Shown piece after piece: positions 1,070 to 59,605 of a stretch of DNA of 64,000 nucleotides. The DNA lies in the IMG/VR virus record IMGVR_UViG_2751185632_000005, positions 1 through 64,000 of that record. One strand, written 5' to 3'. The position numbers were made by a program, and so were the translations under genes. The notes below the pieces were generated by a model. It was not told where the DNA came from and ran no database searches. It saw only the letters and a list, made by a program, of their open reading frames with translations. Every line of letters starts with the position of its first letter. Within the stretch, counting starts at the first letter, position 1. This DNA is from a virus. Taxonomy: Duplodnaviria; Caudoviricetes.

Positions 1070-1144
<75 letters not shown>

Positions 1145-1231
1145 TAACCTTCCCGCCGAGACCGCCAAAGGCGATTTTGGCGTGGCGCGGGTTCTCATTT
1201 TGTTCTATATTATCCGGCAAGGGACGGGAAA

Positions 1232-2195
1232 ATGTCGGATGCGCACTACAGGGTCCGGGTCGAGGGAGACCACCTAAAGAAGCTCGCGAGCGCGAAGCCG
1301 AGCCAGGCCGTGGCCGAGCTGATCTGGAACTCTGCGGATCCCGATGCCACTCGGATAGATTTGGAGATCGAGACCGACGACATCGCCATGCGTTCGGTGA
1401 CCGTTCGGGACAATGGTCATGGCATCCCCCATCCGGACGTAGAGGCTGTCTTCGGTAAACTCGGGGGTTCATGGAAGGCACACGGCAGCCGCTCCAAGAC
1501 CCAAGGGCCGCATCCTGCATGGCAAGGAGGGCAAGGGACGCTTCAAGGCGCTTGCCCTAGGCCGAGTGGCCGATTGGGCCGTCCGCTACCGCGAAGATGG
1601 AAAGCTATTCGGTTACAAGATCACGGTGCTTCGGGACGACCTCGTGGACGTGCGCGTCACCCAGCCAAAGGAAGTCGACGGCGCTCTGGGGACCGGCGTG
1701 GAGGTGCGCATCACGGAACTCGACAGGAGCTACCGCTCGCTCGATCCTCAATACGCGGTCCAGTCCCTGTCCGAGGTGTTCGCGCTCTATCTGACCGACT
1801 ATTCCGATGTGGGCATATTCGTCGAGGGAGAGCGCCTCGACCCTTCCAAGCTGATCGCCAGTCGCGAACGGTGGAGCTTTTGGGTACTATCCAATGACTT
1901 GGACTCATATGCCAGCATCCAGACCAGGCAGAAGGGCAAGGCCAGGGGGCAAGTTTTCCAGTCTGAAGACGGGGGTATCGAGGTCTGGGTCAAGACGTGG
2001 GCGGAGGTGATTGCCGAGTGCAAGTCTCGGATGAAGTTTGTCCAGGAGCACCTCCAGGCGAACGTCGATAGAGAAAGTTCCCTCAAGTATCTGAAGAAGA
2101 CGTAGGAGAAATACCTAACTGGGATTGCGGAGGGTAACGAAGGATACACCGAGCCGGTGGACCAAGAGACAGAGCGGGAAACCGTGGAGGAGTGA
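1232..2195 (+). pseudogene. Degraded GHKL (HATPase_c/MORC-like) ATPase
   Basis: ELIWNS, DNGHG, HGKEGKGRF motifs split by a frameshift near 1500; apparent internal deletion near 1870; in-frame TAG at 2103. Confidence 0.75.
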
Positions 2196-2213
2196 AAGCG
2201 ATCGGAAGGCGGC

Positions 2214-2630
2214 ATGGATAGCCTGACACCCGAACAGCGCAGCGAGCGCATGGGGCGCATTAAGGGCCGCGATACAGGCCCGGAGATGGTTGTGCGGCGA
2301 CTCCTGCACCGTCTCGGCTATCGCTATCGTCTGCACGCACGCGACTTACCAGGGCGACCAGACATAGTGTTCCGCAGCCGTAAGGTGGCGATCTTCGTGC
2401 ACGGGTGTTTTTGGCACCGCCATCCAGACCCCGAGTGCAGGTTGGCGCGTCTACCTAAATCACGCCTCGACTTCTGGTTGCCAAAGTTGGAGGGGAACTT
2501 TTCTCGCGACGTGGAGAATCGAAGGCGCCTAGAGACCATGGGATGGAAAGTCTTGGTTATTTGGGAGTGCCAAACTGGCAAAATGGATGAACTCGAATCA
2601 GCCTTGCGGGAGGCTCTGACGTTGCCATGA
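2214..2630 (+). CDS. vsr: Very short patch repair endonuclease
   Basis: RSERM..IKGRDTGPE, LPGRPD, FVHGCFWH motifs; directly upstream of C5-MTase. Confidence 0.93.
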   Translation: MDSLTPEQRSERMGRIKGRDTGPEMVVRRLLHRLGYRYRLHARDLPGRPDIVFRSRKVAIFVHGCFWHRHPDPECRLARLPKSRLDFWLPKLEGNFSRDVENRRRLETMGWKVLVIWECQTGKMDELESALREALTLP

Positions 2631-3841
2631 AGTCCATAGAGCTATTTGCCGGCGCCGGCGGGTTGGGAATGGGCGTCTCTTTAGCAGGCTTCCATCCGAT
2701 CGAGGTCGTCGAGTGGGACGCATATTGCTGCGACACGCTCAGGGAGAACCGTGAACGTGGCATTGAGCCAGTGCGCACATGGCCGTTGACGCAAGGGGAT
2801 GTTCGCAAGATCGACTTCTCGCGACATGAGGGGACCGTTCAACTCGTCACCGGTGGACCGCCCTGCCAACCCTTCTCGATCGGTGGCAAGCATCGGGCTT
2901 ATGACGATGCCAGAGATATGTTCCCTCAAGCCGTGCGGGCTCTTCGGGAGGCCAAACCCAAGGCATTCATATTCGAGAACGTAAAGGGTCTGACTCGCCA
3001 AACATTCCGTAATTATGTCGAGTATATTCGCCTTCAGATGATGCACCCGGAGGTGGTGATGCGGCATGGGGAGGCGTGGAGCGACCACCTTGCTCGGCTT
3101 GAACAGCATGAAACAAGCGGTAGCTGTGAGGGTCTGACGTATAACGTCATCATCCATCTCGCGAACGCCGCCGACTATGGTGTTCCCCAGCGGCGCGAGC
3201 GTGTATTCTTCGTGGGGTTTCGCAGCGATCTTGAGATCGCGTGGAGCTTCCCTCGGGAAACCCATTCAGCGGAAGCGCTTGCATGGGAGCAGTACCGAGA
3301 CAATGCTTATTGGGAACGACACAGTGTATATTGGAAGGATCGTGCCTTTTCTGAAAGGACTCGTGCGCGAGCGTGGCGCTTTACAGAGCGGCCTGAGACA
3401 AAGCCGTGGGTAACTGTTCGGGATGCGTTGATGGGGTTGCCGGACCCCGAGCATAACCCTGCCTCGGCAAAACGCTACCTCAACCATCGTTTTCAGGCCG
3501 GAGCACGTTCATATACTGGGCATACTGGCAGTCCGCTTGACGAACCAGCGAAGACGCTCAAGGCTGGTGTCCACGGAGTTCCTGGCGGTGAGAATATGCT
3601 CTTGAAACCAGACGGTTCAGTCCGCTATTTTTCCGTGAGGGAGAGCGCTAGGCTTCAAACATTCCCAGACAACTTCTTGTTTCACGGATCGTGGACTGAG
3701 GCGATGCGTCAGCTTGGCAATGCTGTCCCTGTAGATCTAGCGCGGATCGTCGCACAAGACGTGATGCGTCACTTGGAGAACAGGATTGACCAAGGGGCCA
3801 TACAACCCACTCGACAAAATAAATCTCGCCCGAAGCATTGA
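2627..3841 (+). CDS. dcm: DNA cytosine-C5 methyltransferase (M subunit)
   Basis: ELFAGAGG, GGPPCQPFS, ENV, QRRERVF, ARLQTFP, QLGNAVP. Confidence 0.95.
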   Translation: MKSIELFAGAGGLGMGVSLAGFHPIEVVEWDAYCCDTLRENRERGIEPVRTWPLTQGDVRKIDFSRHEGTVQLVTGGPPCQPFSIGGKHRAYDDARDMFPQAVRALREAKPKAFIFENVKGLTRQTFRNYVEYIRLQMMHPEVVMRHGEAWSDHLARLEQHETSGSCEGLTYNVIIHLANAADYGVPQRRERVFFVGFRSDLEIAWSFPRETHSAEALAWEQYRDNAYWERHSVYWKDRAFSERTRARAWRFTERPETKPWVTVRDALMGLPDPEHNPASAKRYLNHRFQAGARSYTGHTGSPLDEPAKTLKAGVHGVPGGENMLLKPDGSVRYFSVRESARLQTFPDNFLFHGSWTEAMRQLGNAVPVDLARIVAQDVMRHLENRIDQGAIQPTRQNKSRPKH

Positions 3842-4463
3842 GATTGAGGTTCTCTCGCGTGATGTCCTGCCTCTGGGCACAGCGGAATTAGTCTCAGGCG
3901 CGGGCGTATATGTCCTCTACTATAAGGGTGACTTCGCTGCTTACACGCCGATTGCTTCAGCGAACGCGGAAAGCTGGGAACGGCCTATCTATGTCGGCAA
4001 AGCGATTCCCAAAGGCGGACGAAAGGGCGGCATCACCCGCGACACCGCTACCGCAGGTACGGCACTTGGATCACGACTGAGGAAGCATGCGGAATCGATC
4101 CGCGCGACCGAAAACCTCAAGATTGAAGACTTCGTTTTCCGCTACATCGTCCTTGACGACATTTGGATACCGCTCGGCGAGAACATTTTGATCGAAACGT
4201 TCAAGCCGTTGTGGAATGTCGCCGTTGAAGGATTCGGGATCAACGATCCGGGCAAGGGGCGGTTGAACCAAAAGCGTTCTCCATGGGATGTACTACATCC
4301 CGGCAGAGGTTACGCAGCACGGTTGACCGGCGGCGGGCCTGATTCCGCCGCTGTTCTGGGCAGGATCGAAGATCATTTTGCCGGTAAGCCTCTTCGTGCC
4401 CTTCCCAAGGTTCTTGCTGAGGCGGCGGATGAAGCGATTGAGGAGGACCGAGGCGAGGTTTAG
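3786..4463 (+). CDS. Eco29kI-family GIY-YIG type II restriction endonuclease
   Basis: PYNPLDK N-terminus, GVYVLYY, IYVGKA, RLRKH, GFGINDPGKGR, SPWDVLHPGR; TTG start. Confidence 0.85.
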   Translation: MTKGPYNPLDKINLARSIEIEVLSRDVLPLGTAELVSGAGVYVLYYKGDFAAYTPIASANAESWERPIYVGKAIPKGGRKGGITRDTATAGTALGSRLRKHAESIRATENLKIEDFVFRYIVLDDIWIPLGENILIETFKPLWNVAVEGFGINDPGKGRLNQKRSPWDVLHPGRGYAARLTGGGPDSAAVLGRIEDHFAGKPLRALPKVLAEAADEAIEEDRGEV

Positions 4464-4494
4464 CCAAATGGCGCTTTGATCAAATCCCACTTCC

Positions 4495-4824
4495 CTATTT
4501 ATCCAGCGACGCGACCGCCTCTGCCTGGACGACGGTTATTTCCAGTGACCGCTCGTCCATGCGGCTTGCAGCGATCCTCAACCTATCTTGCAGAAGCTCT
4601 TTGGCAGATAAACTCTCATCTGTTGCTGGAGCAACAAGCAGTGAGTTCGGTGACGTGCCAAGAACCTCTGCAATTTTGACAAGCGTCGCTAAGTCCGGTT
4701 CTCGCTTGCCACTGACATAGTTCGCATAACGACGCTCGCTGAGACCAACGCGGCGCGCGACCTCAGCGTTAGATATTCCGAGCTCCTCAGCCCTACGGCG
4801 CAGATTCGACGCGAACGGCAACAT
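4495..4824 (-). CDS. XRE-family HTH regulator
   Basis: LRRRAEELGISNAEVARRVGLSERRYANYVSGKREPDL. Confidence 0.85.
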   Translation of the reverse strand: MLPFASNLRRRAEELGISNAEVARRVGLSERRYANYVSGKREPDLATLVKIAEVLGTSPNSLLVAPATDESLSAKELLQDRLRIAASRMDERSLEITVVQAEAVASLDK

Positions 4825-4891
4825 AGGAACAAAATGTTCCGACAGGCCGCTTCACGTCCACGAACGATATGTTATCCATGATAAGAACGAT

Positions 4892-5221
4892 TTGTTCTTA
4901 TCATGGATGAACCGCTTGGATTGGCTCCTGCTCGCGCTGAAATGGCTGGTGATCGCGGTGGCGGCCTCGCCCATCGTGCTCGGCATCGGCTCGGTCGTGG
5001 TCGAGGTGTCGATCCTGCCGCGCCTCGTCCCGCGCGCGGAGATCGAGGCCATGGCCGACGCGGTGATGCGGGACCACCCCGACGACCCGGAGGAGTGGGC
5101 GTTCATGGAGGAGCACGCCGCCTGGTATCGGAGCCTGAGCTTCGAGCAGGGCAAGTGGCACCGCGTCCGAAAGGTCATCCGGCGTCGGCTTCTGGCCGGC
5201 GACTACCCGCCCGCCGCCTGA
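4892..5221 (+). CDS. Hypothetical membrane-anchored protein
   Basis: Hydrophobic N-terminal segment, coding-like composition. Confidence 0.55.
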   Translation: MFLSWMNRLDWLLLALKWLVIAVAASPIVLGIGSVVVEVSILPRLVPRAEIEAMADAVMRDHPDDPEEWAFMEEHAAWYRSLSFEQGKWHRVRKVIRRRLLAGDYPPAA

Positions 5222-5636
5222 GCGGGACGGCCTCACCCCGCCTCCTCATCTTGCTCGCGTACCACCTGACCGACTTCTCGCTCGCGTGGGCGCCCTCGAC
5301 CAGCCGGTTGACCTCAGCGGCGATGGCCGAATAGGTCCAGTCGGGATGCTCGACGATCAGCGCCTCGGCGGTGCGCCCGACGCCCTTGCCCCGGCCCGAT
5401 GCGGCGGCCCGTGGCGGCTTCGATGCGGCCGGGCCTGATGAGGCCGAGCCGAAGCTCGTCGAAGGCCTCGGCGGCCACCGGAACTCATCCGGATCGATGC
5501 CGTACTTGTCGACAAGCTCCTCGGCCTTCTCGAACGCCGCCGCGGCCTCGCCGGCCGTGCAGCCGTTGGCCACCGTCTTCAACAGCAGCGCCTCGATGCG
5601 CCGCCTCACCAGCGGCAGCTCTCTCTGATGCGACAT
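5175..5636 (-). CDS. DUF2786-like N-terminus fused to a small HTH-like C-terminal domain
   Basis: RIEALL..NGCTAGEAAAAFEKAEELVDKYGI; C-terminal SEKSVRWYASKMRR. Confidence 0.65.
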   Translation of the reverse strand: MSHQRELPLVRRRIEALLLKTVANGCTAGEAAAAFEKAEELVDKYGIDPDEFRWPPRPSTSFGSASSGPAASKPPRAAASGRGKGVGRTAEALIVEHPDWTYSAIAAEVNRLVEGAHASEKSVRWYASKMRRRGEAVPLRRRAGSRRPEADAG

Positions 5637-5794
5637 GGAAAACCCTCCAACGGCGGAATGCCGATGGAAGCCAGCATGTCGCGGTTGCAGGGCTTCGCGA
5701 GCCGGTCGGAGGCGGAAATCTTTGTCGGATCAGGGGGCTCGCGGCGGCTCGGAAACGCGACACGATGGAGGGAGTGCAGATCAGGAGACAGAGA

Positions 5795-6028
5795 ATGACC
5801 GCCGCCAAGACCTACTACGCCGTGATCGCGGTTGGCGAAGGAACGCCGATCGACGACATGCGCCGCCGCCTCTTCGCGATCCTCGGAGAGCCGGCGACGT
5901 TCCGGCTGATGTCCTATCGGACGAAGCCGTCCGGCATCGTCACCCACCACATGGCCGAGGTGAAGTTCGTGACCGACGCCGGCGACGACCGGCTCGACCT
6001 GATCGAGGCCGCCGAGATCGAGGACTGA
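5795..6028 (+). CDS. Hypothetical protein
   Basis: AGGAG RBS before ATG 5795. Confidence 0.55.
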   Translation: MTAAKTYYAVIAVGEGTPIDDMRRRLFAILGEPATFRLMSYRTKPSGIVTHHMAEVKFVTDAGDDRLDLIEAAEIED

Positions 6029-6466
6029 TCAGTCCTCGACGATCCTCGCGCCCTTAACCGTCGCCAGTCCCTCCAGCACTGCCGTCTGGACGAAGCCGGC
6101 CGGCGCCTGCTTCGAGTGCCCGTCGTTCAGCGGCTGGATGTGCGGCGCGTTGTTGGTGATGTGGATTTCGCGGTTGGCGGCGATGTTGAACGCCTCGATG
6201 GTGGGCGTGCCGGCCTCTATGGTCGCGGCGGCGTTCTCCTCCGCCGTCGATCCTCTCTCGCCCGGCACCCGCGCCGGAAACAACCCCTCGAAGGCGCGGT
6301 CCAGCTCCGGCGTCCAGTTCGAGCGGGCATAGCCGGTGTCGACCGGCGTGTTCTCGACGACCGAGCGGAGGACGGCACTGGCGCAGTCCTTCACCGCCCG
6401 CTCGACGTTGCCCTCGACCCGCACGGCGATGCGGTCGATGCGCTTGGCGAAGTTGTCAAAGCTCAT
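6029..6466 (-). CDS. HK97 gp10-like neck/tail-completion protein
   Basis: TPVDTGYARSNW and NNAPHIQPLNDGHSKQAPAGFV. Confidence 0.75.
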   Translation of the reverse strand: MSFDNFAKRIDRIAVRVEGNVERAVKDCASAVLRSVVENTPVDTGYARSNWTPELDRAFEGLFPARVPGERGSTAEENAAATIEAGTPTIEAFNIAANREIHITNNAPHIQPLNDGHSKQAPAGFVQTAVLEGLATVKGARIVED

Positions 6467-6815
6467 CGGCGTACTTTCCCACGCGGCGCAGCTCGGCCTC
6501 GGCGACGCGGCGCATGACCGCTTCGAAGATCGGATCGCAATCGGCGTCCGGCTCCATGAACGGCATGTCCTCCGGCCAGAGGTCGCGCTCCGCCTGAGAG
6601 CGGCGCCAATGCACCCGCTGCGGCAGGCCGCCGCTCGGATCGACGGTGCATTCCCGATAGCCGAGCGTGCGCAGGTGCCACTCCATCATGAAGCGGGCGT
6701 GCGCGCCGAAGGTCTCCGGCGTGCCGCCGAGATAGATGTGCAGCGTCAGCGGCGTGGTGGAGAACACGCCGGCCAGAGCGTCGCGGATGGGCTGCTCACG
6801 GTTCGCCATGGTCAT
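6456..6815 (-). CDS. Hypothetical protein
   Basis: Overlaps both neighbours in the operon. Confidence 0.55.
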   Translation of the reverse strand: MTMANREQPIRDALAGVFSTTPLTLHIYLGGTPETFGAHARFMMEWHLRTLGYRECTVDPSGGLPQRVHWRRSQAERDLWPEDMPFMEPDADCDPIFEAVMRRVAEAELRRVGKYADEL

Positions 6816-7078
6816 GCCCCCTTCAGATAGCTGCCGCCGCGGTCGAGGTTCGGCCAGATCGATTGCGCCCGCGCGCCGACCGGCAGGCCGTGCACAAAGG
6901 CGGCCGGAGAACTGGTGAGGTCGACCGAGGTCCAGCCGACGAGCGCGTTCGGCTCGCCGAGCAGGGTCTCGGCCACGACGCGCGCCGCCGAGGCGGTCGC
7001 CCCGACCGCGACGGCGAAGTTCAGCCCGTCGCCGCGGCGCTGCTCCTCGCGGGCGGGAAAGAAGGCAAAGGTGGCCAT
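6812..7078 (-). CDS. Hypothetical protein
   Basis: GAGGA RBS, coupled to next gene. Confidence 0.6.
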   Translation of the reverse strand: MATFAFFPAREEQRRGDGLNFAVAVGATASAARVVAETLLGEPNALVGWTSVDLTSSPAAFVHGLPVGARAQSIWPNLDRGGSYLKGA

Positions 7079-7081
7079 GGC

Positions 7082-7831
7082 TCAGTCCTCCTGATCGGCA
7101 AGGGTGTCGAGGGCGTCGTCGGTGACGCCCAGCTCGGCGCGGTCGCGCGCCCGCAGGGCGAGGCCGATGGTGCGCTCTGCCGGATTGCGACCGGTCTCGA
7201 AGGCGCGGTCCTCGATCATGGCCCGGTCGGCGATGTCCTCGACCTCGAGGATCGCCGCCTGGACGGCGCGGTACTCGTCACCGACGATCCGGTCGGCGAG
7301 CTCCTGCGGCGAGAACGGCCGCTCGGCGTGGGGCATGCGGTTGACCCGCGCCACCAGCACGGCGGCAAGCTCGCGGTCCTTGGTGGATGCCGCGAGCGCA
7401 GCGAGGCTCGAAAGCTCGACGTCGCCGGAGTGCTCGATCTGCTGCATCAGGCGGGAGCGGCGCTCGCTGCCCAGCCCTTCGCGCATGATCATCTGAATGC
7501 TGGAACTATAGTGCGCCTTCGCGTCGGCGACCTCGCGCTTGACGGCGTCGAGATTTCGAAGCCGGGCGACCCGGTCGTCGAGGCTCGCCCGCTTCAGTTC
7601 GGCGCGCAGTCCGCCGACCGCGCGAGAGACGACCTGCATGCGATGGGCGGGGGCGAGATCGGACAGCGTGGAGTCCAGCTCTTTGCGGCGGGTTTCCACG
7701 CGGCCGTTCATGTCGGCGATCAGCCGCGTGTGCTGCTCGCCGAGCTCCCGTGCCCGCGAGAGCGACGCCCGCAGATCGGTCACCGATCGCCAAGGCTTCG
7801 TCAGGGTGGGCTTGGGCTTCAACTTTGCCAT
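7082..7831 (-). CDS. Helical/coiled-coil hypothetical protein
   Basis: AAGGAG RBS before ATG 7831; helix-rich sequence. Confidence 0.65.
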   Translation of the reverse strand: MAKLKPKPTLTKPWRSVTDLRASLSRARELGEQHTRLIADMNGRVETRRKELDSTLSDLAPAHRMQVVSRAVGGLRAELKRASLDDRVARLRNLDAVKREVADAKAHYSSSIQMIMREGLGSERRSRLMQQIEHSGDVELSSLAALAASTKDRELAAVLVARVNRMPHAERPFSPQELADRIVGDEYRAVQAAILEVEDIADRAMIEDRAFETGRNPAERTIGLALRARDRAELGVTDDALDTLADQED

Positions 7832-8005
7832 GGTTGTTCTCCTTCGTCGTGGCGCGTCACGCCCCACGAGGTCGGATGACCACGGCGCGGGACACAGCCC
7901 GCATGAGCGTCCACCGCCAGCGCGGTGACCGGGCCGGCCCATCGGTCGGCCCGTAGACAGCGTCACGATGCGGCGTTCGCGGAGGTCGAGGAGCCAACGT
8001 TTCCA

Positions 8006-8401
8006 TCAGTGGGTCGAACCCGCAGGCATCGCCGGCACGCTGGTATTGACGCCGGCTTCGCGAAGCGTCGCCAAAACCTCGGGCGGCGCATCTTCGGAGA
8101 TGAGCAGCCCTCCATAATTTCCGGTGCGCTTGAGAAGGGCGGTGAAGGAATTAAGCGTGACTTCGCCTATCTGAATGCCCGCTGCGGAGTTGATCAGGGT
8201 GCTGGTCGCCTCCATGAACTTCTTCGTCAGAACCTTCTTGGTGATCGGCACCTCGATCCGGTGCCCCATCGTCTCATCGTTGATCGTGACCTCGAACAGC
8301 GCCCCCATGTCGATGGTGATCTCGCGGATGTGCTTGTGACCCGGCAGATCCTCGCCATCCTCGGCGGTCATGATTCCCAGCAAACGCATCTCGACCTGCA
8401 T
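8006..8401 (-). CDS. Hypothetical protein
   Basis: Probable start MQVEMR at 8401. Confidence 0.55.
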   Translation of the reverse strand: MQVEMRLLGIMTAEDGEDLPGHKHIREITIDMGALFEVTINDETMGHRIEVPITKKVLTKKFMEATSTLINSAAGIQIGEVTLNSFTALLKRTGNYGGLLISEDAPPEVLATLREAGVNTSVPAMPAGSTH

Positions 8402-8478
8402 GGCTTGTCCCTTTCTCGCCTGCTTGCTATACTGCATCACACTGCACCACATGGCGTCAGCGTGAGACGGAGGTAAGC

Positions 8479-8844
8479 ATGAGTGACACTGATGCGTCAA
8501 GCGGCAAAATGATGCGACGAATCTCAGTTAGCATCAGAGAGGATCAGTATCAGGGGCTGGAAGAGGTCGCCGAAGACCTCGGAGTCAACCTTTCGGATGC
8601 CGCAAGGGAGGCCATCAACTCCTATCTGCTGGACGTCCATTGGGGAAACTCGATCGGCAGCTATGCCCGCAAGCTCATTGAGAACGGACTGACAAATAAG
8701 GAGGTTTTGGAGAAGGTCCGCGAAAAATTCCCGCACGGAGCGACCTCGCCGGAGTCAATCGCCTGGTATCGCTCGAAAATGCGCCGGGAGGGATTGGCGG
8801 TCGTAACCGACCGCGAGGCCAAAGCGCGAAGAAACGCTGAATGA
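8479..8844 (+). CDS. Ribbon-helix-helix protein with second C-terminal HTH-like domain
   Basis: RISVSIREDQYQGLEEVAEDLGVNLSDAAREAI (CopG-like); TSPESIAWYRSKMRR; GGAGGT RBS. Confidence 0.7.
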   Translation: MSDTDASSGKMMRRISVSIREDQYQGLEEVAEDLGVNLSDAAREAINSYLLDVHWGNSIGSYARKLIENGLTNKEVLEKVREKFPHGATSPESIAWYRSKMRREGLAVVTDREAKARRNAE

Positions 8845-8879
8845 CTCATTGTGCTGACGAGTGGTGTTATTTTGCAACG

Positions 8880-9146
8880 TCACTCGTCGTCATCTCCCAC
8901 GTTTGATCGGTGTTCCGCTTGATGCTCGTCGGCCATGCGCTCCCACAGATCGACCGGAACGGGTGAAATCGACCAGAACCACGCCCCGGTCGGATGGCCG
9001 CGAGTGGCGACGAGCGCCTGCGCCCCGCCGGCCTCGGCAATCGTCCTCGGCGCGGTGGCGGCGAGCGTGCCGGTCAGGGCCTCGGCGGCCATAAGGTCGC
9101 GCAGCATCTGCTGCACGGCTTCAGTTGATTGGGACGAGCGCGCCAT
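8880..9146 (-). CDS. Hypothetical protein
   Basis: GGAGG RBS before ATG 9146. Confidence 0.5.
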   Translation of the reverse strand: MARSSQSTEAVQQMLRDLMAAEALTGTLAATAPRTIAEAGGAQALVATRGHPTGAWFWSISPVPVDLWERMADEHQAEHRSNVGDDDE

Positions 9147-9627
9147 CGGCCTTGGCCTCCACCTCGACGACCAGATACTTGCCAAGCAAGTCAATCAAGG
9201 CAGCGCGGTCGATCGGCTCCATCCGTGCGATGACGCGGGGATCGAGACCAGCAGGCGCTGCGGCGGCCGAACCGCCCTCGGCTGTAAAGGCGAGGAAGCC
9301 GTTCAGCCGCTCGGGCCATCGGAACTTGAGCAGGACCTCAATCAGCCGGTCCGAAGGCTCCTCTTCGGCAAGAGACCGCTCGAACGCCTTGCCCAAAATC
9401 TCATGAAACGCCGTGTCCATGGCGGCACCGTAGCGCGCACCGAAGTCGGCATCGCGCCTGCGGTGGTCGTGGATGGTGGCGACGGACACTCCGACCGCCT
9501 CAGAGGCGCGCTTCGGCGATCCGGTGCGCGACACGATGTCGAGCACCTTCGCCTCGATGGCAGGCGACCAACGCCTGTCCATGGCGGGACAGCGAATTGC
9601 TCTGGTTGCATTTCCCAACTTGCCCAT
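9121..9627 (-). CDS. Terminase small subunit-like HTH protein (start may be 9582)
   Basis: ASEAVGVSVATIHDHRRRDADF...SDRLIEVLLKFRWPE pattern resembles TerS-like proteins. Confidence 0.55.
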   Translation of the reverse strand: MGKLGNATRAIRCPAMDRRWSPAIEAKVLDIVSRTGSPKRASEAVGVSVATIHDHRRRDADFGARYGAAMDTAFHEILGKAFERSLAEEEPSDRLIEVLLKFRWPERLNGFLAFTAEGGSAAAAPAGLDPRVIARMEPIDRAALIDLLGKYLVVEVEAKADGALVPIN

Positions 9628-9734
9628 TGGTGGGTTCCAATTTAAGTTCTACTGGAGAATATAGAAATTGCCCTGATTCACATACCAACAATTGAGAGTT
9701 AAACTGCGTAATAATTCCAATCCTACGGGGGCTG

Positions 9735-10964
9735 ATGGGCCATTCAAAGATACCACTTTTTGCGTTTGTTGACGAAACGGGCAATACTGGTCACAATTTA
9801 TTCGACGACACGCAACCTGATTTCTTTACTGCATCGCTAATTACAAAGGGCGATTTCGATGCAGTGTGTGGCGCGCAGGTATCGGCTCTTGCGCAGAGAT
9901 TTCAGAGCAATTCGCTTCACGCACAAAACCTTGGCATCGGGCGCTTGGAGATTCTTTCAGAGGACTTTGCCAGCATTCTTGTGCGGTCACAGGCAAGATT
10001 TTTCGTATCGCGCGTCGAGAAGAAGTATCTACTGTGTACGAAGATATTTGACGCCATCTTTGATTCCGGAGAAAATGCTGCGGTCGCATGGCATCATTAC
10101 AATCTGCGCCCGATGCGGCTAATTCTTGCATTTAAGCTTGCCTCAACGGTCGATATGGATACTGCAAAGCTTTTCTGGCGGTCTATCCTTGAACCAAAAG
10201 AGGAAAAAGCAATCGCAATGCTGCCGAGTGTTTGTGATGGATTGCTTGCAAATTTAGATCGGGTGCCAGACGCAAGATCAAGAGAAATACTCGGAGATGG
10301 GTTGAGGTGGGCGAGGGAGCACCCCGAGACAATCCAGATTCACACCGACCGCAAGTCAACTAGACAAGGCCATCTACCGAACCTAGTTGCGTTCGCCAAT
10401 CTGCTTGACGGACTTGAGAAGATTTCCAGTGAAAGTAAAAGACGCGTCGCAAAAATCAGACATGACCAACAGAGTGAATTTGGAAAAACACTCGCTGCGT
10501 GGCACGAGATGTTCTCGACAGCTGCACCGGATGAATTGAAATGGGCAGGAGAAACTTATCGCTTCCAAAAAGTCGTTGGCAGCGAATTTGAAATTTCCGA
10601 GGATTCCAATAGCCCTGGAATTCAGGTCGCAGATGTTGTGCTGTGGCTCTACAGCCAATTCAGAAAAGGCAGACAACTTCCTCCAGGATGCATGAAAGTG
10701 ATTGGGTACGTTTTATCAAATGGATGGGAAAATGATTTTTCTTTTTCAGGCGTAGAACGCGAAGCGATGAACCGTTTCGGCCCCATGTTGACGACGCCTC
10801 TTACTGAGAAGCAAGAGGTTTCGGCTCGTCAAGCACTAAAAGAGCTTGAGAAGGCAAGGCTTTCGTCAATGGAGAAATATAAATTGGATCACCTGCCTCC
10901 TTTTATGAGGGGAAAGTCATTGTCTTTGCCAGATTCAGGCAGCGCACCTGAGATCGGAGATTGA
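9735..10964 (+). CDS. DUF3800-family (RNase H-like) protein, putative defence cargo
   Basis: N-terminal FVDETGN, C-terminal GIQVAD; low GC; inverted relative to island core. Confidence 0.75.
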   Translation: MGHSKIPLFAFVDETGNTGHNLFDDTQPDFFTASLITKGDFDAVCGAQVSALAQRFQSNSLHAQNLGIGRLEILSEDFASILVRSQARFFVSRVEKKYLLCTKIFDAIFDSGENAAVAWHHYNLRPMRLILAFKLASTVDMDTAKLFWRSILEPKEEKAIAMLPSVCDGLLANLDRVPDARSREILGDGLRWAREHPETIQIHTDRKSTRQGHLPNLVAFANLLDGLEKISSESKRRVAKIRHDQQSEFGKTLAAWHEMFSTAAPDELKWAGETYRFQKVVGSEFEISEDSNSPGIQVADVVLWLYSQFRKGRQLPPGCMKVIGYVLSNGWENDFSFSGVEREAMNRFGPMLTTPLTEKQEVSARQALKELEKARLSSMEKYKLDHLPPFMRGKSLSLPDSGSAPEIGD

Positions 10965-11679
10965 ACAGTACCTTCAGATCTTGAGCTTCATTGGTTTTTC
11001 CTAACAATTTTCCTTAGAAGTGATCGAGAAACGTCATTAAGGATGGGCCGTGAGGCACACGGACGCCCCAGGACGCCGGTCTGTCCACCGATGGAAGTAG
11101 GTTGCTTTGCCCGAAAGGCCCTCCGGCGGCTGAACATCCGCCCCTTGTCGGTGCCTGGCCCTGTGCTTTCGGTGCCGCTGTCATCCATGCCCTTGCACCG
11201 GCTCGCCTTTTGGGCTTGCTCCACCCAATCACAAGTTCAATGCTCTGTCGCCTAGCACCCCCACGTCGGCTCTTACGCCTGCCGTCGATGCCTTCGGTGA
11301 TTTCGGCCTTGCTCGCCATCGCGACGCCGCCGTCGAGCGCCCTGCCGCTAACCTATGCGCCGCCGTGGCTCTGCCGGCATCGCCCTTGGCCGGCTGATTG
11401 GCTGCCTCGCACGCGCGAGGACTGCGTGGTCTGCGAGGCGCGCGCCTCCGGCACCGTCTTCCAAGCATTTGCCGCTGTATCTCGGTATATCTCGGAGCTC
11501 CGACACTTACCGGACAGTCTATACGCTGCCGCCGCTGCCCCTATGCCTTTCCCTATTCGATGATGATTTATATAGATAAGATACAACAGATACAGCAGAC
11601 GGAATTGCGCAGTCGGAACAGAGCGTTGCGGTGCGGTATCCCGACCTGGAAGATACCGCGCCACATGCAGCGCCGACGC

Positions 11680-13884
11680 TCAGAAGGTCGGGTCGACGGG
11701 CGAGACGTAGCCCGTACCCGACCTCTGACCGTCCCTGAGGTTGGTCTTGTGCCGCCAGCCGAGCTTGGCCATCAGCATCGAGACGCGCTTGGCGTCGTTC
11801 TGGTTGCGACGGCTGCACGGCACCTCTACCGCCTGCTCCAGCAGCTCCTCGGACAGGAACCGCGTCTTGTCGGGCCGGCACTCGACATAGGCGCGGAGCC
11901 TGTCGAGCCACGGGTCGTCGATCATGCGGTCGCCCTGCTTTTCCGCCGCGTCGGCCCAGAGGGTCTGCGGCAGCGCCAGGGTCTCGCCCGTCGCCTCCAG
12001 GCGGCTCGCCTCGGCCCAGAGCTGGTCGCGGTCCCGCTTCAGTGCTTCGAGATCGATGTCGCCGGTAGCCACTGGCAGGTAGCGCCGGTTGCCGGTGTGG
12101 TCGCGCAGGTAGGAGCCGCTGTTGGTGGTGCCGACGAAAACGCAGCGACGGGGATAGGTCTTCACCGTCTTGCCGTAGGGTGGGCGATAGCGGTCCTCAG
12201 TGCGGGTGACGAACGCCTTGAGGTGGTCGACCTCGGCCTTGTTCATGGCGGTGAGCTCGCCCAACTCCATGATCCAGACGCCGTGCAGCGCCGCCGCCGA
12301 GTCCTTGCCGTCGACGCGGCCAAGCTCGGCGTCGGAGTGCCAGTCGCGACCGAGGACTCGCAGCGCCGAGGTCTTCCCCGAGCCCTGCTTTCCCTCGATG
12401 ATCGGTACCATGTCGAACTTGGCGCCGGGGCAACGCATCCGCCTCACTGCCGCCAGCATCAGCTTGCGGCCGACCGCGCGCTCATAGGCGCCGTCCGCCG
12501 ATCCGAAGTAGGATGGAAACAGGCGGTCGACGCGGGGCACGCCGTCCCACGTCAGGCCGTCCAGGTACTCGACCACCGGGTTGAAGGTGTTCTTGGTGGC
12601 AAGGGCGAACAGGACGTCGGAGACATCCTCGCGCTTGGGCTCGAAGCCGAACTGCTCCATGATCCACTCGCGAATGATGCGGATCAGGTCGTCGTTGACC
12701 TCGCGGCCGATGTCGACAGTCCAGGGCAAGCGCTCGGCCCTAAGGCAATAGCGCTGCGCCAGCTCGTCGTAGCCGACTCCGAAACCGCCAGCCTCCACGG
12801 CGCGCTGGGTGTTGCGGTAGTTGGCGACGATGACGCCCTTCACCGTCATGAACGTCGGCTCGGCCTTCAATGCAGGCAGCGCGATGTCGTCGGGGAAATC
12901 CTCGCACGCGGGAGCGCGCAGCACCTCCTCGATGAGCCCGCCCTTGCCGGCGTCGGAGAGCGCCTTCAGGAGCGTGCCGAGCTTGACGCCGTTCGGCTTC
13001 ATAGCGAGCGAGCGCCACTTGCGGCGGATGACCTCCTCGTCGTCGGCGTAGGTGGGGTCGCCGAGCGACCAGGCGACGAACGGGTCGACGCCGGCCCCGC
13101 CCGTGCCGTAGTGCGCCGCCATCATGATCCGCATCCAGTCGTCGTGCCGGCGGTTGTAGGGGGCGACGTCGAGACCGGAGAGCAGCTTTTCCAATTGTTC
13201 GGGCGTGACATCGCCGTAGACGTCGCTCAATGCCGCCCCGGAAGGCCGCCGGATGGCCTCCAGCAGCGCCGTGGTCGCCTCGGGCGCTTCCGACAGAAAC
13301 AGAGCAAGCGCGTCGTCGTCGAGGCGGTACGGCTTGCCGTTCGGATGCACCGAGCCGGCCGCCACCACGAACCGCCCCGTTGTGGCGAACTCGACGCCGG
13401 GGTATTCCGGCAGGCCGTGGACGATCAAAACGTCAGCCGGCTTCCTCATGTAGAGGTGCCGACCGCCGCCGCCCGTCAGCACGAAGGGCGAGACCGGCAG
13501 GGCGAAGTCGGCGATCAGCCTTGCGAGCGGGTCATCGCCCTCGGCGAAGTTCCTCGGGTCGACGTCGATCACCAAGTCGATATCGCGCAGGCGAACGCCG
13601 ACGTTGGCGTCGGCCATCAAACGAGCCTTGGCCTTTTCGAGCGACAGGGGAACGGTACGCCGCCAACCCCGCTCGACCGGCCGCTTGCCGTCGATCGGGA
13701 TCAGGTCATGGCCGGCTGCGATGTGGGCCTTCAGGGCGTCGGGGTCGTGCTTCGACGGCGTTTCCGAGGCTGCCAGAGTGGCATCTTCAGTCTTGTCGAT
13801 GTCGAACTCGACGGTCTTCCCCAAGCTCATCGCGGGCGCGCCGATCCCCTCGGCGCGCCCTTCTTCATTGAGAAAATCGCTCAT
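11680..13884 (-). CDS. Prim-Pol primase / PriCT-2 / VirE (VapE) helicase fusion
   Basis: LVIDVD, TGGGGRHLY, DDWMRIM..FVAWS, Walker A GKQGSGKT, TGNRRY. Confidence 0.88.
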   Translation of the reverse strand: MSDFLNEEGRAEGIGAPAMSLGKTVEFDIDKTEDATLAASETPSKHDPDALKAHIAAGHDLIPIDGKRPVERGWRRTVPLSLEKAKARLMADANVGVRLRDIDLVIDVDPRNFAEGDDPLARLIADFALPVSPFVLTGGGGRHLYMRKPADVLIVHGLPEYPGVEFATTGRFVVAAGSVHPNGKPYRLDDDALALFLSEAPEATTALLEAIRRPSGAALSDVYGDVTPEQLEKLLSGLDVAPYNRRHDDWMRIMMAAHYGTGGAGVDPFVAWSLGDPTYADDEEVIRRKWRSLAMKPNGVKLGTLLKALSDAGKGGLIEEVLRAPACEDFPDDIALPALKAEPTFMTVKGVIVANYRNTQRAVEAGGFGVGYDELAQRYCLRAERLPWTVDIGREVNDDLIRIIREWIMEQFGFEPKREDVSDVLFALATKNTFNPVVEYLDGLTWDGVPRVDRLFPSYFGSADGAYERAVGRKLMLAAVRRMRCPGAKFDMVPIIEGKQGSGKTSALRVLGRDWHSDAELGRVDGKDSAAALHGVWIMELGELTAMNKAEVDHLKAFVTRTEDRYRPPYGKTVKTYPRRCVFVGTTNSGSYLRDHTGNRRYLPVATGDIDLEALKRDRDQLWAEASRLEATGETLALPQTLWADAAEKQGDRMIDDPWLDRLRAYVECRPDKTRFLSEELLEQAVEVPCSRRNQNDAKRVSMLMAKLGWRHKTNLRDGQRSGTGYVSPVDPTF

Positions 13885-14120
13885 CGACCGTCCTCCCCGA
13901 GCACAAAGGCGTTGAGGTCGTCGATGTGGTAGCGGACGATCTTGTCGTGGATGACGCGATAGCGCGGTCCCTGACCCCGCGCCCGCCATGAGCGGAGCGT
14001 ACCGGACGTGCAGGAGAGATAGGCTGCTGCCGTCTCGGTGTTGAGCCAAGGGCTGTTGGTTTCCTTGAGATGGCGGGTGAAGCTGTCACCGACCGTCTCG
14101 ATCTTCGGCGTGTCACGCAT
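13881..14120 (-). CDS. AlpA/HTH_17 excisionase-like protein
   Basis: WLNTETAAAYL..TLRSWRARGQGPRY..RYHIDDL. Confidence 0.85.
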   Translation of the reverse strand: MRDTPKIETVGDSFTRHLKETNSPWLNTETAAAYLSCTSGTLRSWRARGQGPRYRVIHDKIVRYHIDDLNAFVLGEDGR

Positions 14121-14389
14121 TGCATGGACCTCCATGCGGTCGACGGCAGAGCCGTCGAACCGGTTTCAGACAAAGGGTTTCTGTCTAAGGAGGACCGGGA
14201 TCGCCCCGGTCACGCGCTTCGCCGTGAGGCTCCTCGAAAAGCGCGCGTCGTCTAATCATCACGGATCGGCGTGCAGAGACATCAACGTTTACGGTCGCCC
14301 TTTATGGGAGACTTGACAGCGGCGATCTTCCCTCACGATGTGAGCCACATACAGTTCAAACGGGAATCTATGGGAGTCGTGAGCTTCAG

Positions 14390-14626
14390 ATGAGAGAATT
14401 CAGCCTAACGGAACCGGTCACTGTCTTCTGGCGGAATGACCTCGAGCGCCTGCAATATCGGCCTGAGTCTCATTATTTTGAGAGGGCCGAGGATGCTATA
14501 CGATGGATGTTCGAAGTTTTGACCGGCGATCAACGCTGGTCCGCTTACATGCGTCTTGAAAGCGAACACGAGCAAGTCCCCGCGTCATCTCTGGAAGAGC
14601 AGTACCGCCGAATTACATCGAGATAG
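14390..14626 (+). CDS. Hypothetical protein (counter-oriented moron)
   Basis: Lower GC, abuts convergent HTH gene. Confidence 0.5.
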   Translation: MREFSLTEPVTVFWRNDLERLQYRPESHYFERAEDAIRWMFEVLTGDQRWSAYMRLESEHEQVPASSLEEQYRRITSR

Positions 14627-15028
14627 TCAGTCGCCTTTTTCAATCGGACTCGGCAACGCTGGCCCGATCGCCACCTCCTTCACCTTGTCGCGCATCCATT
14701 TCGGCACCCGCCGCCGGCCGCCCCGCACGAAGGCATCGAGATCGTCGATGTGGTATCGAATGAATTGCTCGTTGACGAGGTAGAAGCGCGGGCCTTCTCC
14801 CCGTGACCTCCAGCCCTTGAGCGTGCCCGGCTCGCGCCGCAAGTAGGCGGCGGCGGCTTCGGTGTCGAACCAAGGCGTATAGCGGTGGGTTTCAAGAAGC
14901 CAACTGACCAGAAGCTCGACGTCATCGATGGTGACGGGTCCTTGCTTCCTTGGCGGCCGAGGCTTTTGGATCGGCACCGGCGAATGCGGCTTGGGCCGTG
15001 GAACGTTCGACTTAAGCGGCCGCGGCAT
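14627..15028 (-). CDS. Second AlpA/HTH_17 excisionase-like protein
   Basis: WFDTEAAAAYL..TLKGWRSRGEGPRF..RYHIDDL; overlaps integrase stop. Confidence 0.8.
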   Translation of the reverse strand: MPRPLKSNVPRPKPHSPVPIQKPRPPRKQGPVTIDDVELLVSWLLETHRYTPWFDTEAAAAYLRREPGTLKGWRSRGEGPRFYLVNEQFIRYHIDDLDAFVRGGRRRVPKWMRDKVKEVAIGPALPSPIEKGD

Positions 15029-16199
15029 CGTCGTCCTCCTCGTCGTCGTCTTCAAAGGCCGGCAGGATGAAGCCGGCCGTGCGGGCGGCGACGACCTTGT
15101 TTTCCAACGCCTGTGCGTGCGGCCGCAGGTGCTCGACGAGGTGTTCTGCGTGGACGTAGCCGCCGGACGCTCCGGGAAGGCGCTGGCCGAGCAGGAGCGC
15201 GCTCTCGGCATAGGGCACGCCGGCCGCGATGAAGAGGGTGCGGGCGTGGTGCCGGTACTCGTGCGGGCTCGGCAGGCCGCGCCGCTTCTCCTTGGGCTCG
15301 GTGGTGCAGCCGGTGCCGCTCTGAGGCGACGGCCAGAGCCAAGGATTGTTGAGGGGCCGGTCGGCGCGCATCCGTTCCTCGACCATGGCCGCGAGAAAAT
15401 CGCCCATGGGAAAGAGCATCTGGCCGCCCGTCTTCATGTGGGTGAAGCGCAGGAGCTTGCGGTCGAGATCGACGTCGGCCCGCTTCAGGTTGAGGATGGA
15501 GGCACGCCGGGCTCCGGTCAGCATCATGGCGCGGTGGAGGTCTCGCCGGATCGGTGGAAGCTCCTCCGTCGTCTCCCACCATTCCGAAAGGTCAAGCGCC
15601 TCGACCTGACGGTCGGGCGGCATCGGCAGGCGCAGGGCGCAAACCGGATTGTCGGTGAGCGTCTCGTCCATGCGCATGGCAGTATTGATGATGGCGCGAA
15701 GGACGCGCATGACGCCGGTCGCCGTGGTCTGGCCGCATCCGGTGCGGAGCTTCTCATAGATCTCTCGAACCAGGGGGCGGCTGAGATCGACGATCGGCCG
15801 GTTCCTGTGGCGGGCGAGATAGTGATCGACGTTGTACCGATAGCTGTCCTCGGTGGCCTTGCGGAACGGGCGTTCGCCGAGGTGGGTTTCCAGCGCTTCG
15901 GCGATGGTGATGGTGCTTTCCCTCGGCTTGACCGTGGGATCGACGCCGGATTGGATCTGCGACATCAGTTCGCGGGCGCGGTTGCGGGCCTCCTTCAGGC
16001 TGATGCGGTCCGCCCGGTCGATCTTCACCCGGACGGTTCGGACGTGGCGACCGTTTCTGCGGACGTCGCCTTGCACGGAGTAGGTTTTTGTGGTGGCATG
16101 GCAGATGATCATCAGGCCCTTGACCTGCTGGTCTCGCCAGATGCCGGAGCCGAGGGGGAGTTCCCGGATGCGGGACTCCGTGAGATTGAGGGAAGCCAT
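15012..16199 (-). CDS. int: Tyrosine integrase (P4-like, arm-binding N-terminus)
   Basis: LTGARR, HEYRH, LLGQ, GGYVH; adjacent to attR. Confidence 0.9.
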   Translation of the reverse strand: MASLNLTESRIRELPLGSGIWRDQQVKGLMIICHATTKTYSVQGDVRRNGRHVRTVRVKIDRADRISLKEARNRARELMSQIQSGVDPTVKPRESTITIAEALETHLGERPFRKATEDSYRYNVDHYLARHRNRPIVDLSRPLVREIYEKLRTGCGQTTATGVMRVLRAIINTAMRMDETLTDNPVCALRLPMPPDRQVEALDLSEWWETTEELPPIRRDLHRAMMLTGARRASILNLKRADVDLDRKLLRFTHMKTGGQMLFPMGDFLAAMVEERMRADRPLNNPWLWPSPQSGTGCTTEPKEKRRGLPSPHEYRHHARTLFIAAGVPYAESALLLGQRLPGASGGYVHAEHLVEHLRPHAQALENKVVAARTAGFILPAFEDDDEEDDDAAAA

Positions 16200-16345
16200 T
16201 CGATTATTTCCTTCGCGAACACCGGTCGGAGTACCGGATGCCGATCATCGAAAATCAGCATCCGTCGCTCATGATGTCGTGTAAGTGCCTGTTCGCGAAC
16301 CAATAATCAGCGCAGATCGATTCCAACGTACGGTTGATGAACACA

Positions 16346-58046: not shown

Positions 58047-58415
58047 TCATTCCTCCGGGCTGGCGGTGATGGAGAAGTCCCCGTAGAACTTGCCCTGCCA
58101 CGGGAAACAGCCATCGACGGGCTCGATGCTGTGCTCCACCCACGTCAGGCCGGTGCTGACGTCGTAGTCGCCGGTGGCGTTGCAATAGCCAGCGCTGACC
58201 CAGCTCTGGTAGACGTCGGGAAAGGCAGCCTTGAACGCCTCCCTCTCCATGGCAAACTTGATGTCGCCCATGTAGGTGATCTGCACGTAGCGGAATGGGC
58301 CGATCACGGGGCCGCGATAGCCCCAGCCGTCCATGTCCTCGGTGGCGGTATCTCGGCCGTGGAACAGGCTGATGTAGACGGCGCCCGTCTCGGGGCGGCT
58401 CATGGGAAGCGACAT
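58047..58415 (-). CDS. Hypothetical protein
   Basis: YISLFHGR..MDGWG..GP.IGP; leader motif. Confidence 0.65.
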   Translation of the reverse strand: MSLPMSRPETGAVYISLFHGRDTATEDMDGWGYRGPVIGPFRYVQITYMGDIKFAMEREAFKAAFPDVYQSWVSAGYCNATGDYDVSTGLTWVEHSIEPVDGCFPWQGKFYGDFSITASPEE

Positions 58416-58524
58416 AGGCGGTCTCCTTGAGTGCATGATTGCGGGGGAGCCCGGCCACCGGGAGGGTGGCGGCCGGGCTGGTGGCGATGGCACGGGTACG
58501 CAAAGAACAGTCGCCATCGCCGAG

Positions 58525-59138: not shown

Positions 59139-59188
59139 GGATGGTCTCCGTGAGTGCATGATTGCAGGTGGATTCGCCGTGAGGCTTC

Positions 59189-59217
59189 TTGACTCCAAGC
59201 CTATTCGGCGTGACGAT
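59189..59217 (+). promoter_or_regulatory. Putative sigma70 promoter of mini-CRISPR unit
   Basis: TTGACT-N17-GACGAT ending 13 nt before repeat 1. Confidence 0.55.
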
Positions 59218-59230
59218 TGCCTTGGCGTCG

Positions 59231-59320
59231 GCCTCCCCCGCCAACGCGGGGATGGCCCTTGCTAGCGTCCTTATCGAACGCGAGCATATTGGGTTTCCCC
59301 GCCAACGCGGGGTTCCAAGG
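59231..59320 (+). CRISPR. Type I-E-like mini-array (repeat, 32-nt spacer, degenerate repeat); no cas genes in window
   Basis: R1 GCCTCCCCCGCCAACGCGGGGATGGCCCT and R2 GGTTTCCCCGCCAACGCGGGGTTCCAAGG share an exact 16-bp palindromic core, 61-nt period. Confidence 0.65.
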
Positions 59321-59350
59321 GACTGTCGGAGCAGTAACTCCGGGCCGGCG

Positions 59351-59530
59351 TCATCTCCCCACTTTATGGTCCGGGTCGTTGACCATCTCGATCCGATAAT
59401 GGTCGCCGTTGTAGCCGACCCAGCACATTTCGACAGGGCGCTGGAACTGCACGGGGAAAAGGCGCCGGAAAACGCCCCACAGGGATGACGGGGCTTCTTG
59501 TCCGGTTGTCTCGTTGACAATGCGGGCCAT
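59351..59530 (-). CDS. Small hypothetical protein
   Basis: AAAGGA RBS. Confidence 0.5.
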   Translation of the reverse strand: MARIVNETTGQEAPSSLWGVFRRLFPVQFQRPVEMCWVGYNGDHYRIEMVNDPDHKVGR

Positions 59531-59605
59531 GGTTTTTCCTTTCTTGTTGCTGTCGAGCATTGGCGCTCGGGGTCGCCGGCCTGTTACGGTCGGCGGGCCG
59601 GGGCG

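Follow-up and report, generated by a model that had tools for sequence, protein, structure and literature searches.

A cas-less type I-E mini-array in a Pleomorphomonas prophage as a possible anti-CRISPR RNA gene

Why would a prophage carry a type I-E repeat, a spacer and a second repeat when it brings no Cas proteins to use them? The locus that raises this question lies in a 64,000-nt stretch of viral DNA (the window), which forms the first part of a provirus record of 89,471 nt that is 95% complete. A search of this 89-kb record for Cas6e and Cas7e, the two cas families covered, found neither. We consider it an evenly balanced proposition that the single-spacer type I-E mini-array is a prophage anti-CRISPR RNA gene, whose product is a Cracr-like mimic of a crRNA, and we favour this reading over four others that are weighed below. 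The argument proceeds from the anatomy of the element, through the immunity of the host clade, to the search for a target.

Anatomy of the mini-array and of its cassette

Repeat 1 (59231-59259, plus strand) is a full 29-nt type I-E repeat with a 6-bp stem, a CAAC loop and an 8-nt 5' handle. It is followed by a 32-nt spacer (59260-59291, plus strand), which begins, in nucleotides 1-9, with a match to the extended -10 consensus TGnTAnnnT and forms a modest hairpin, and by repeat 2 (59292-59320, plus strand), which has kept the 5' part and the stem-loop, corresponding to the 3' end of a crRNA, and has lost the handle. In line with this, repeat 2 agrees with I-E repeats at 17-18 of the first 21 nucleotides and at only 1-3 of the last 8. 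The 16-nt stem-loops at 59236 and 59297 are identical copies placed 61 nt apart, so that the original prediction was correct in the coordinates and sequences of both stem-loops, the first repeat, the spacer and the handle-less second repeat. This pair comprises the only I-E-type stems in the entire record; in 100 shuffled genomes, single stems turned up at a rate of 0.1 per genome and pairs at a distance of 56-68 nt not at all.

A mini-array is expected to have two to three repeats with the geometry of a subtype, a spacer of subtype length and a repeat compatible with the CRISPR-Cas system of the host clade. The geometry found here is 29+32 nt with stems 61 nt apart, and repeat 1 is identical at 24 of 29 positions to the arrays of three family genomes, namely Pleomorphomonas sp. 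NRK KF1 (G010), G019 and G024. Compared with the array of the closest relative the identity is 20-21 of 29. The stem and the cleavage-site bases are retained. Judged by this anatomy, the element is a viral cas-less type I-E mini-array. An Rfam search of the window returned two tRNAs and nothing else.

Upstream of repeat 1, and ending 13 nt before it, lies a putative sigma-70-type promoter (59189-59217, plus strand), with a -35 box at 59189-59194, a gap of 17 nt and a weak -10 box at 59212-59217. The TTGACT-N17-GACGAT-type site that had been proposed is thus present as sequence and, as also proposed, no GTAC operator was found in 59140-59230; it has 8 of 12 consensus matches and lay under the threshold of the promoter scanner. 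Motifs of this class occur only three times in the 89 kb, and from its sequence the site may well act as a promoter.

The spacer folds on itself at -9.0 kcal/mol. This self-folding had been foreseen and taken to favour a decoy, for which it turns out to be weak evidence, since 25% of 207 natural I-E spacers of relatives fold equally well, the proportion being 6.5% among GC-matched spacers. The hairpin is therefore unexceptional among natural I-E spacers. Compared with natural spacers, its seed ranks in the lowest 8% for accessibility, and most of it is paired in the predicted fold. The motif TGnTAnnnT stands at position 1 in none of 678 natural spacers and anywhere in the spacer in 11 of them; the -10-like start is suggestive only, as the motif was spotted after the fact.

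The putative promoter and the mini-array share a 383-bp segment (59169-59551) with an orphan ORF of 59 aa (59351-59530, minus strand; 69 aa from an upstream ATG), which has a strong RBS and is convergent with the mini-array. The segment is absent from three related prophages: in two of them (L149 and L151) the 59168 side abuts the 59552 side directly, and in the third (L003) the flanks are joined with a 4-nt gap. Because the flanks are contiguous there, the promoter-like site, the mini-array and the ORF arrived together as one cassette. Its neighbours are a hairpin on the upstream side and a copy of the leader motif of the operon on the other, and the mini-array runs antisense within a block of small leftward genes. 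The insertion point coincides with the border of the leader motif that is repeated ahead of genes in this block (window 59140-59168 and 58420-58445), a position that is consistent with cassette exchange at such sites.

A second copy of the cassette was not found among 61 relatives, phages or plasmids. The spacer variation among related prophages that the original prediction had hoped to compare does not exist in those examined, as none of them contains an I-E unit. For the 59-aa ORF we found no homologue, no PHROG, Pfam or PADLOC match and no usable Atlas match; by position only, it is a candidate anti-CRISPR protein. The window also holds a second, satellite-like element distinct from the large prophage (1070-16200), which follows a tRNA gene and encodes an integrase (15012-16199) and a primase/VapE-like protein (11680-14049).

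Type I-E immunity and regulatory units in the host clade

According to the flanking host genes, the host of the prophage is Pleomorphomonas, with P. koreensis as the closest species at 92% nucleotide identity. Of 27 family genomes, 4 have a I-E cas7 gene, which the closest P. koreensis genome lacks. A metagenomic close relative, however, whose genes are 97.6% identical in nucleotide sequence to the host flank, possesses a full I-E operon; flank and operon were assigned to one genome by inference, as their contigs have the same length of 583,440 nt and both occur in one ENA assembly. Two spacers of the I-E array of this relative match the phage at 32 of 32 positions. The protospacers are located at 78112-78143 and 78919-78950 of the viral genome, outside the window and inside the full record. 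These perfect matches demonstrate that the phage lineage encounters type I-E immunity.

The flanks of the two protospacers establish AAC as the PAM of the clade: one has AAC, and the other has GCC where a related prophage (G002) has AAC. The GCC may be an escape change. The last base of repeat 1, a T, is the PAM-derived position in the host clade, as read from these sequences. With a I-E cas locus and matching repeats at hand in the relatives, where it had been proposed to look for them, the objection that the clade might have no I-E system falls away.

Several features of the arrays and operons in this group are recorded here in their own right. In the I-E operons of two members of the Pleomorphomonas-like clade, gene calling gives cas8e as two ORFs in succession, either split or frameshifted (L212:7771-9438, in the metagenomic relative, and L297:6772-8417). 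In Pleomorphomonas sp. NRK KF1, the I-E cas3 is preceded at a distance of about 9 kb by another CRISPR array, whose repeat is different and longer (L109-L110; G010:C11:937900-938400). A I-E array in the genome G220 (L313:11378-12020) has unusually heterogeneous repeats and several spacers with similar starts, and two of its repeats share the 8-nt handle of the prophage repeat.

Where else does the stem-loop of the prophage occur? In the chromosomal arrays of 23 I-E loci, none of the 626 repeats has a stem with the CAAC loop, and the stem-loop together with its AT is absent from 401 alphaproteobacterial genomes. Without the handle, the exact 16-nt stem-loop forms the distal repeat (psiR2) of CreR-type units in Polymorphum gilvum (L294, unit 6690-6760) and in the family genome G019 (L136, unit 4975-5045). 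These two units are homologous and lie between cas3 and cas8e; their first repeat is strongly divergent, and their second repeat directly precedes the ribosome-binding site of cas8e. Their spacers of 31/32 nt have a seed match to a -10 box about 330 nt upstream, with the PAM AAC. The published CreR layout fits both of them (bioRxiv 10.1101/2023.03.10.532045; 10.1101/2023.03.03.530964).

The spacer of the prophage resembles none of the host CreR spacers found. The CAAC loop is one change away from CCAC, the commonest array loop, and unrelated hairpins containing it occur in 4 of the 401 genomes; the identity with the host psiR2 may be convergent. A further host regulatory mini-array, in the genome G407 (L306:5830-5930), combines a spacer of 20 nt with a target of 14 nt just downstream, which has the PAM AAG and adjoins a -35-like box.

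The same stem-loop is also present in other viruses. About 8 of 12 viral contigs that contain it carry mini-array-like units with unrelated spacers, which indicates that the design is recurrent. As a side observation, I-E mini-array-like units with the CAAC loop were seen in the unrelated viral contigs L001, L113, L114, L156, L158, L159, L161 and L163, and the spacer of the unit in L159 starts with a perfect -35 hexamer, making it a Cracr candidate.

Search for a target of the spacer

Across 23 I-E loci there is no PAM-flanked seed match of more than 7 specified bases. These loci include that of the closest relative, some are cut by contig ends, and the locus of the actual host is not among them. 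Seed searching of this kind did find the targets of the host units in P. gilvum, G019 and G407. A Cracr is recognised by 9 or more PAM-proximal matches to a host CreR/CreA spacer or a cas/creT promoter, and no such match was found in the 23 loci. In CreTA the guide has a partial match to the promoter of a toxin gene next to it; the cassette and the rest of the viral record contain no seed match of this sort.

Searches in other genomes gave a similar picture. Curated phages and plasmids yielded no match above chance (E of at least 0.9), nor did IMG/VR and metagenomes, the best match was 21/32 in seven related prophages and the Logan contigs and 20/32 in the viral record itself and the satellite-like element, and PAM-anchored scans of viral and metagenome sequences reached at most 23/32. 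A protein-level search for the target returned nothing significant, and codon-degenerate searches, run with the spacer in its two likeliest reading frames, gave zero viral matches. The 401 order-level genomes contained 6 matches vs. 20 in controls, and PAM-anchored matches in the family and I-E-positive genomes were fewer than in controls (2 vs. 15 and 2 vs. 25). A PAM-flanked protospacer in another virus, which would mark an inter-viral array, was not found in a collection in which alphaproteobacterial phages are thinly sampled. The proposal that phage, plasmid or host sequences or the cas promoters would reveal the target has thus produced no PAM-flanked target.

Three candidate matches were considered and rejected. 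A tail gene in an IMG/VR contig (L115) matches at 24/32, with CGG on the PAM side and at the chance level for an 18-base pattern. An origin of the spacer from a homologue of a neighbouring gene is not borne out, as the 58047-58415 family reaches 21/32 at best with no AAN PAM, and none of 150 homologues comes close to the peptide implied by the spacer. Among the PAM-anchored matches a single one is promoter-like; it stands before an ECF-sigma-like gene in a distant genome and has a seed match of only 9 nt.

Weighing the explanations

Extrapolating from established I-E biology, we hypothesize that the mini-array would be transcribed from the plus strand, from its own putative promoter, and that the Cas6e of the host would cut each stem at its base and so release a single 61-nt crRNA-like RNA. 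Loading of this RNA would divert the host Cascade from antiviral crRNAs. In the manner of the Salmonella I-E Cracrs, the loaded Cascade would probably be parked on a -10 promoter box by seed-only pairing, without cutting by Cas3, and the box would most plausibly be the cas promoter of a I-E variant outside those sampled. We favour this anti-CRISPR reading because the element combines I-E geometry with 24/29 identity to repeats of the genus, because the I-E array of a relative targets the phage lineage, because the stem-loop equals the distal repeat of host regulatory units and the spacer starts with an extended -10 motif, and because there is a precedent in the I-E Cracr arrays, which repress PcasA and compete for Cas proteins (bioRxiv 10.1101/2024.10.29.618823). 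On the other hand, it is weakened because the seed-match test failed on the sampled loci, because the closest P. koreensis genome lacks I-E cas7 and the cas8e of the relative is called as two ORFs, because most of the seed is expected to be base-paired and the spacer is unlike those of the host CreR units, and because the CAAC-loop match is possibly convergent and the -10 motif was noticed post hoc. Among the functions offered at the outset, cas repression or a decoy has gained ground over inter-phage attack, and a target has been found for none of them.

Could the RNA instead be aimed at a competitor? Attack on other viruses is the usual role of viral mini-arrays (PMC7099407), and a crRNA that borrows the host Cascade and Cas3 against a competing phage or plasmid, a form of heterotypic superinfection exclusion, is the main rival, a possible though doubtful explanation here. 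The full-length spacer and the intact proximal repeat with its PAM-derived last base would suit it, as would the occurrence of the same architecture in unrelated viruses and the thin sampling of alphaproteobacterial phages; it is opposed by a spacer start that is promoter-like rather than coding-like, and by the lack of a protospacer in viral, plasmid, metagenome, prophage and 401-genome searches. A guide might also make Cascade repress a non-cas host promoter through its -10 box and so alter a receptor or the physiology of the cell, and here a specific site can be named: in one Pleomorphomonas genome, nucleotides 1-16 of the spacer have an exact match in the promoter region of a flaG-like gene, about 55 nt ahead of it. 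From genome-wide composition, the family set should contain about 0.001-0.03 matches of this length. This gene sits in a flagellin cluster, and nucleotides 1-13 match in three more genomes. We nevertheless regard such repression as improbable, given that an AAN PAM is present in 0 of 15 orthologues, that the P. koreensis lineage of the host is mismatched at seed positions 2 and 3, that the pattern search gave 7 matches vs. 5 in controls, and that a shared -10 motif accounts for part of the flaG match.

The remaining two explanations deny the element a function as a guide. That it is a neutral or decaying remnant of a host array or regulatory unit, imported with the orphan ORF, would agree with its presence in one prophage only, with the weak -10 box and with a target that was not found, and the cassette may be retained for the ORF. 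We consider this unlikely: both stems are perfect, the one part lost is the unused handle, where a unit yielding one crRNA tolerates decay, the promoter-like site lies inside the edge of the cassette, and the same design recurs in other viruses. Least probable of all, in our judgement, is a pair of hairpins unrelated to CRISPR, such as minus-strand terminators or attenuators or a REP-like pair. Folding speaks for it, the minus strand folding better than the plus strand (z = -4.7 vs. -2.3), and the same 16-nt hairpin is found elsewhere singly in terminator- or REP-like elements. Neither a U-tract nor a terminator call is present, however, the 29+32 spacing is exact, and the handle and the 5' ends match I-E repeats in the plus orientation. 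In addition, the REP pair seen in a relative has its copies in inverted rather than direct orientation; the repeat-like site that stands alone in P. carboxyditropha, rejected as a candidate, is an inverted REP-like pair. The non-CRISPR three-hairpin RNA that had been suggested as an alternative fails likewise, as the unit matches the I-E system of the host clade.

How does the element compare to known systems? Cracr RNAs are viral crRNA-like RNAs that repress Cas or CreT and include I-E arrays of Salmonella prophages (Liu et al., bioRxiv 10.1101/2024.10.29.618823). Like them, the element is cas-less and prophage-borne, consists of a repeat, a spacer and a degenerate repeat matched to the host I-E system, has a stem-loop identical, perhaps by convergence, to that of host regulatory units and adjoins a small orphan ORF; unlike them, it shows in the sampled loci no defining match to a host CreR/CreA spacer or promoter target, and its spacer has 32 nt, compared to 21-24 nt in the Salmonella I-E Cracrs. 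With the I-E CreR mini-arrays (bioRxiv 10.1101/2023.03.10.532045; Shmakov et al., 10.1101/2023.03.03.530964) it has in common two repeats, of which the distal one is reduced to the 5' part and the stem, and with the CreR units of the clade itself a full-length spacer. It differs from CreR in its location in a prophage instead of between cas3 and cas8e, in its canonical proximal repeat, which is divergent in CreR, and in a spacer unrelated to those of the CreR units found.

The inter-virus mini-arrays (Faure et al. 2019, as cited in PMC7099407; Medvedeva et al. 2019, PMC6858448) likewise have one spacer and no cas genes, and occur in temperate viruses without a leader of the host type. In comparison to these, the repeats of the element reach 24/29 at best to the sampled host arrays, and its spacer targets no related virus. 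With Racr RNAs (Camara-Wilpert et al. 2023, PMC10651486) the element shares the layout of a repeat mimic in a prophage behind a promoter of its own, a putative one here, and a likely competition for Cas proteins. A solitary repeat should have no partial repeat within 100 bp; here the second repeat is 61 nt away, the two repeats would give a full-length crRNA-like unit, and the SRUFinder rules lead to a mini-array (PMC10651486). The element probably works like a Cracr. On the available data, however, the test that defines each class failed for Cracr, inter-viral array, Racr and CreTA alike, and we place it in none of these four.

Viral I-E mini-arrays and Cracr RNAs have already been published, and the present locus contributes, from the Alphaproteobacteria, a further phage RNA apparently built for the type I-E Cascade of its host. 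Its context is unusually complete, with a mobile and sharply bounded cassette, a clade whose I-E system targets the phage, a PAM, and host regulatory units that share the stem-loop, and the orphan ORF within the cassette is a testable anti-CRISPR candidate. If the guide were to repress a host gene other than cas, viral crRNA mimics would extend beyond anti-CRISPR activity to the physiology and the receptors of the host.
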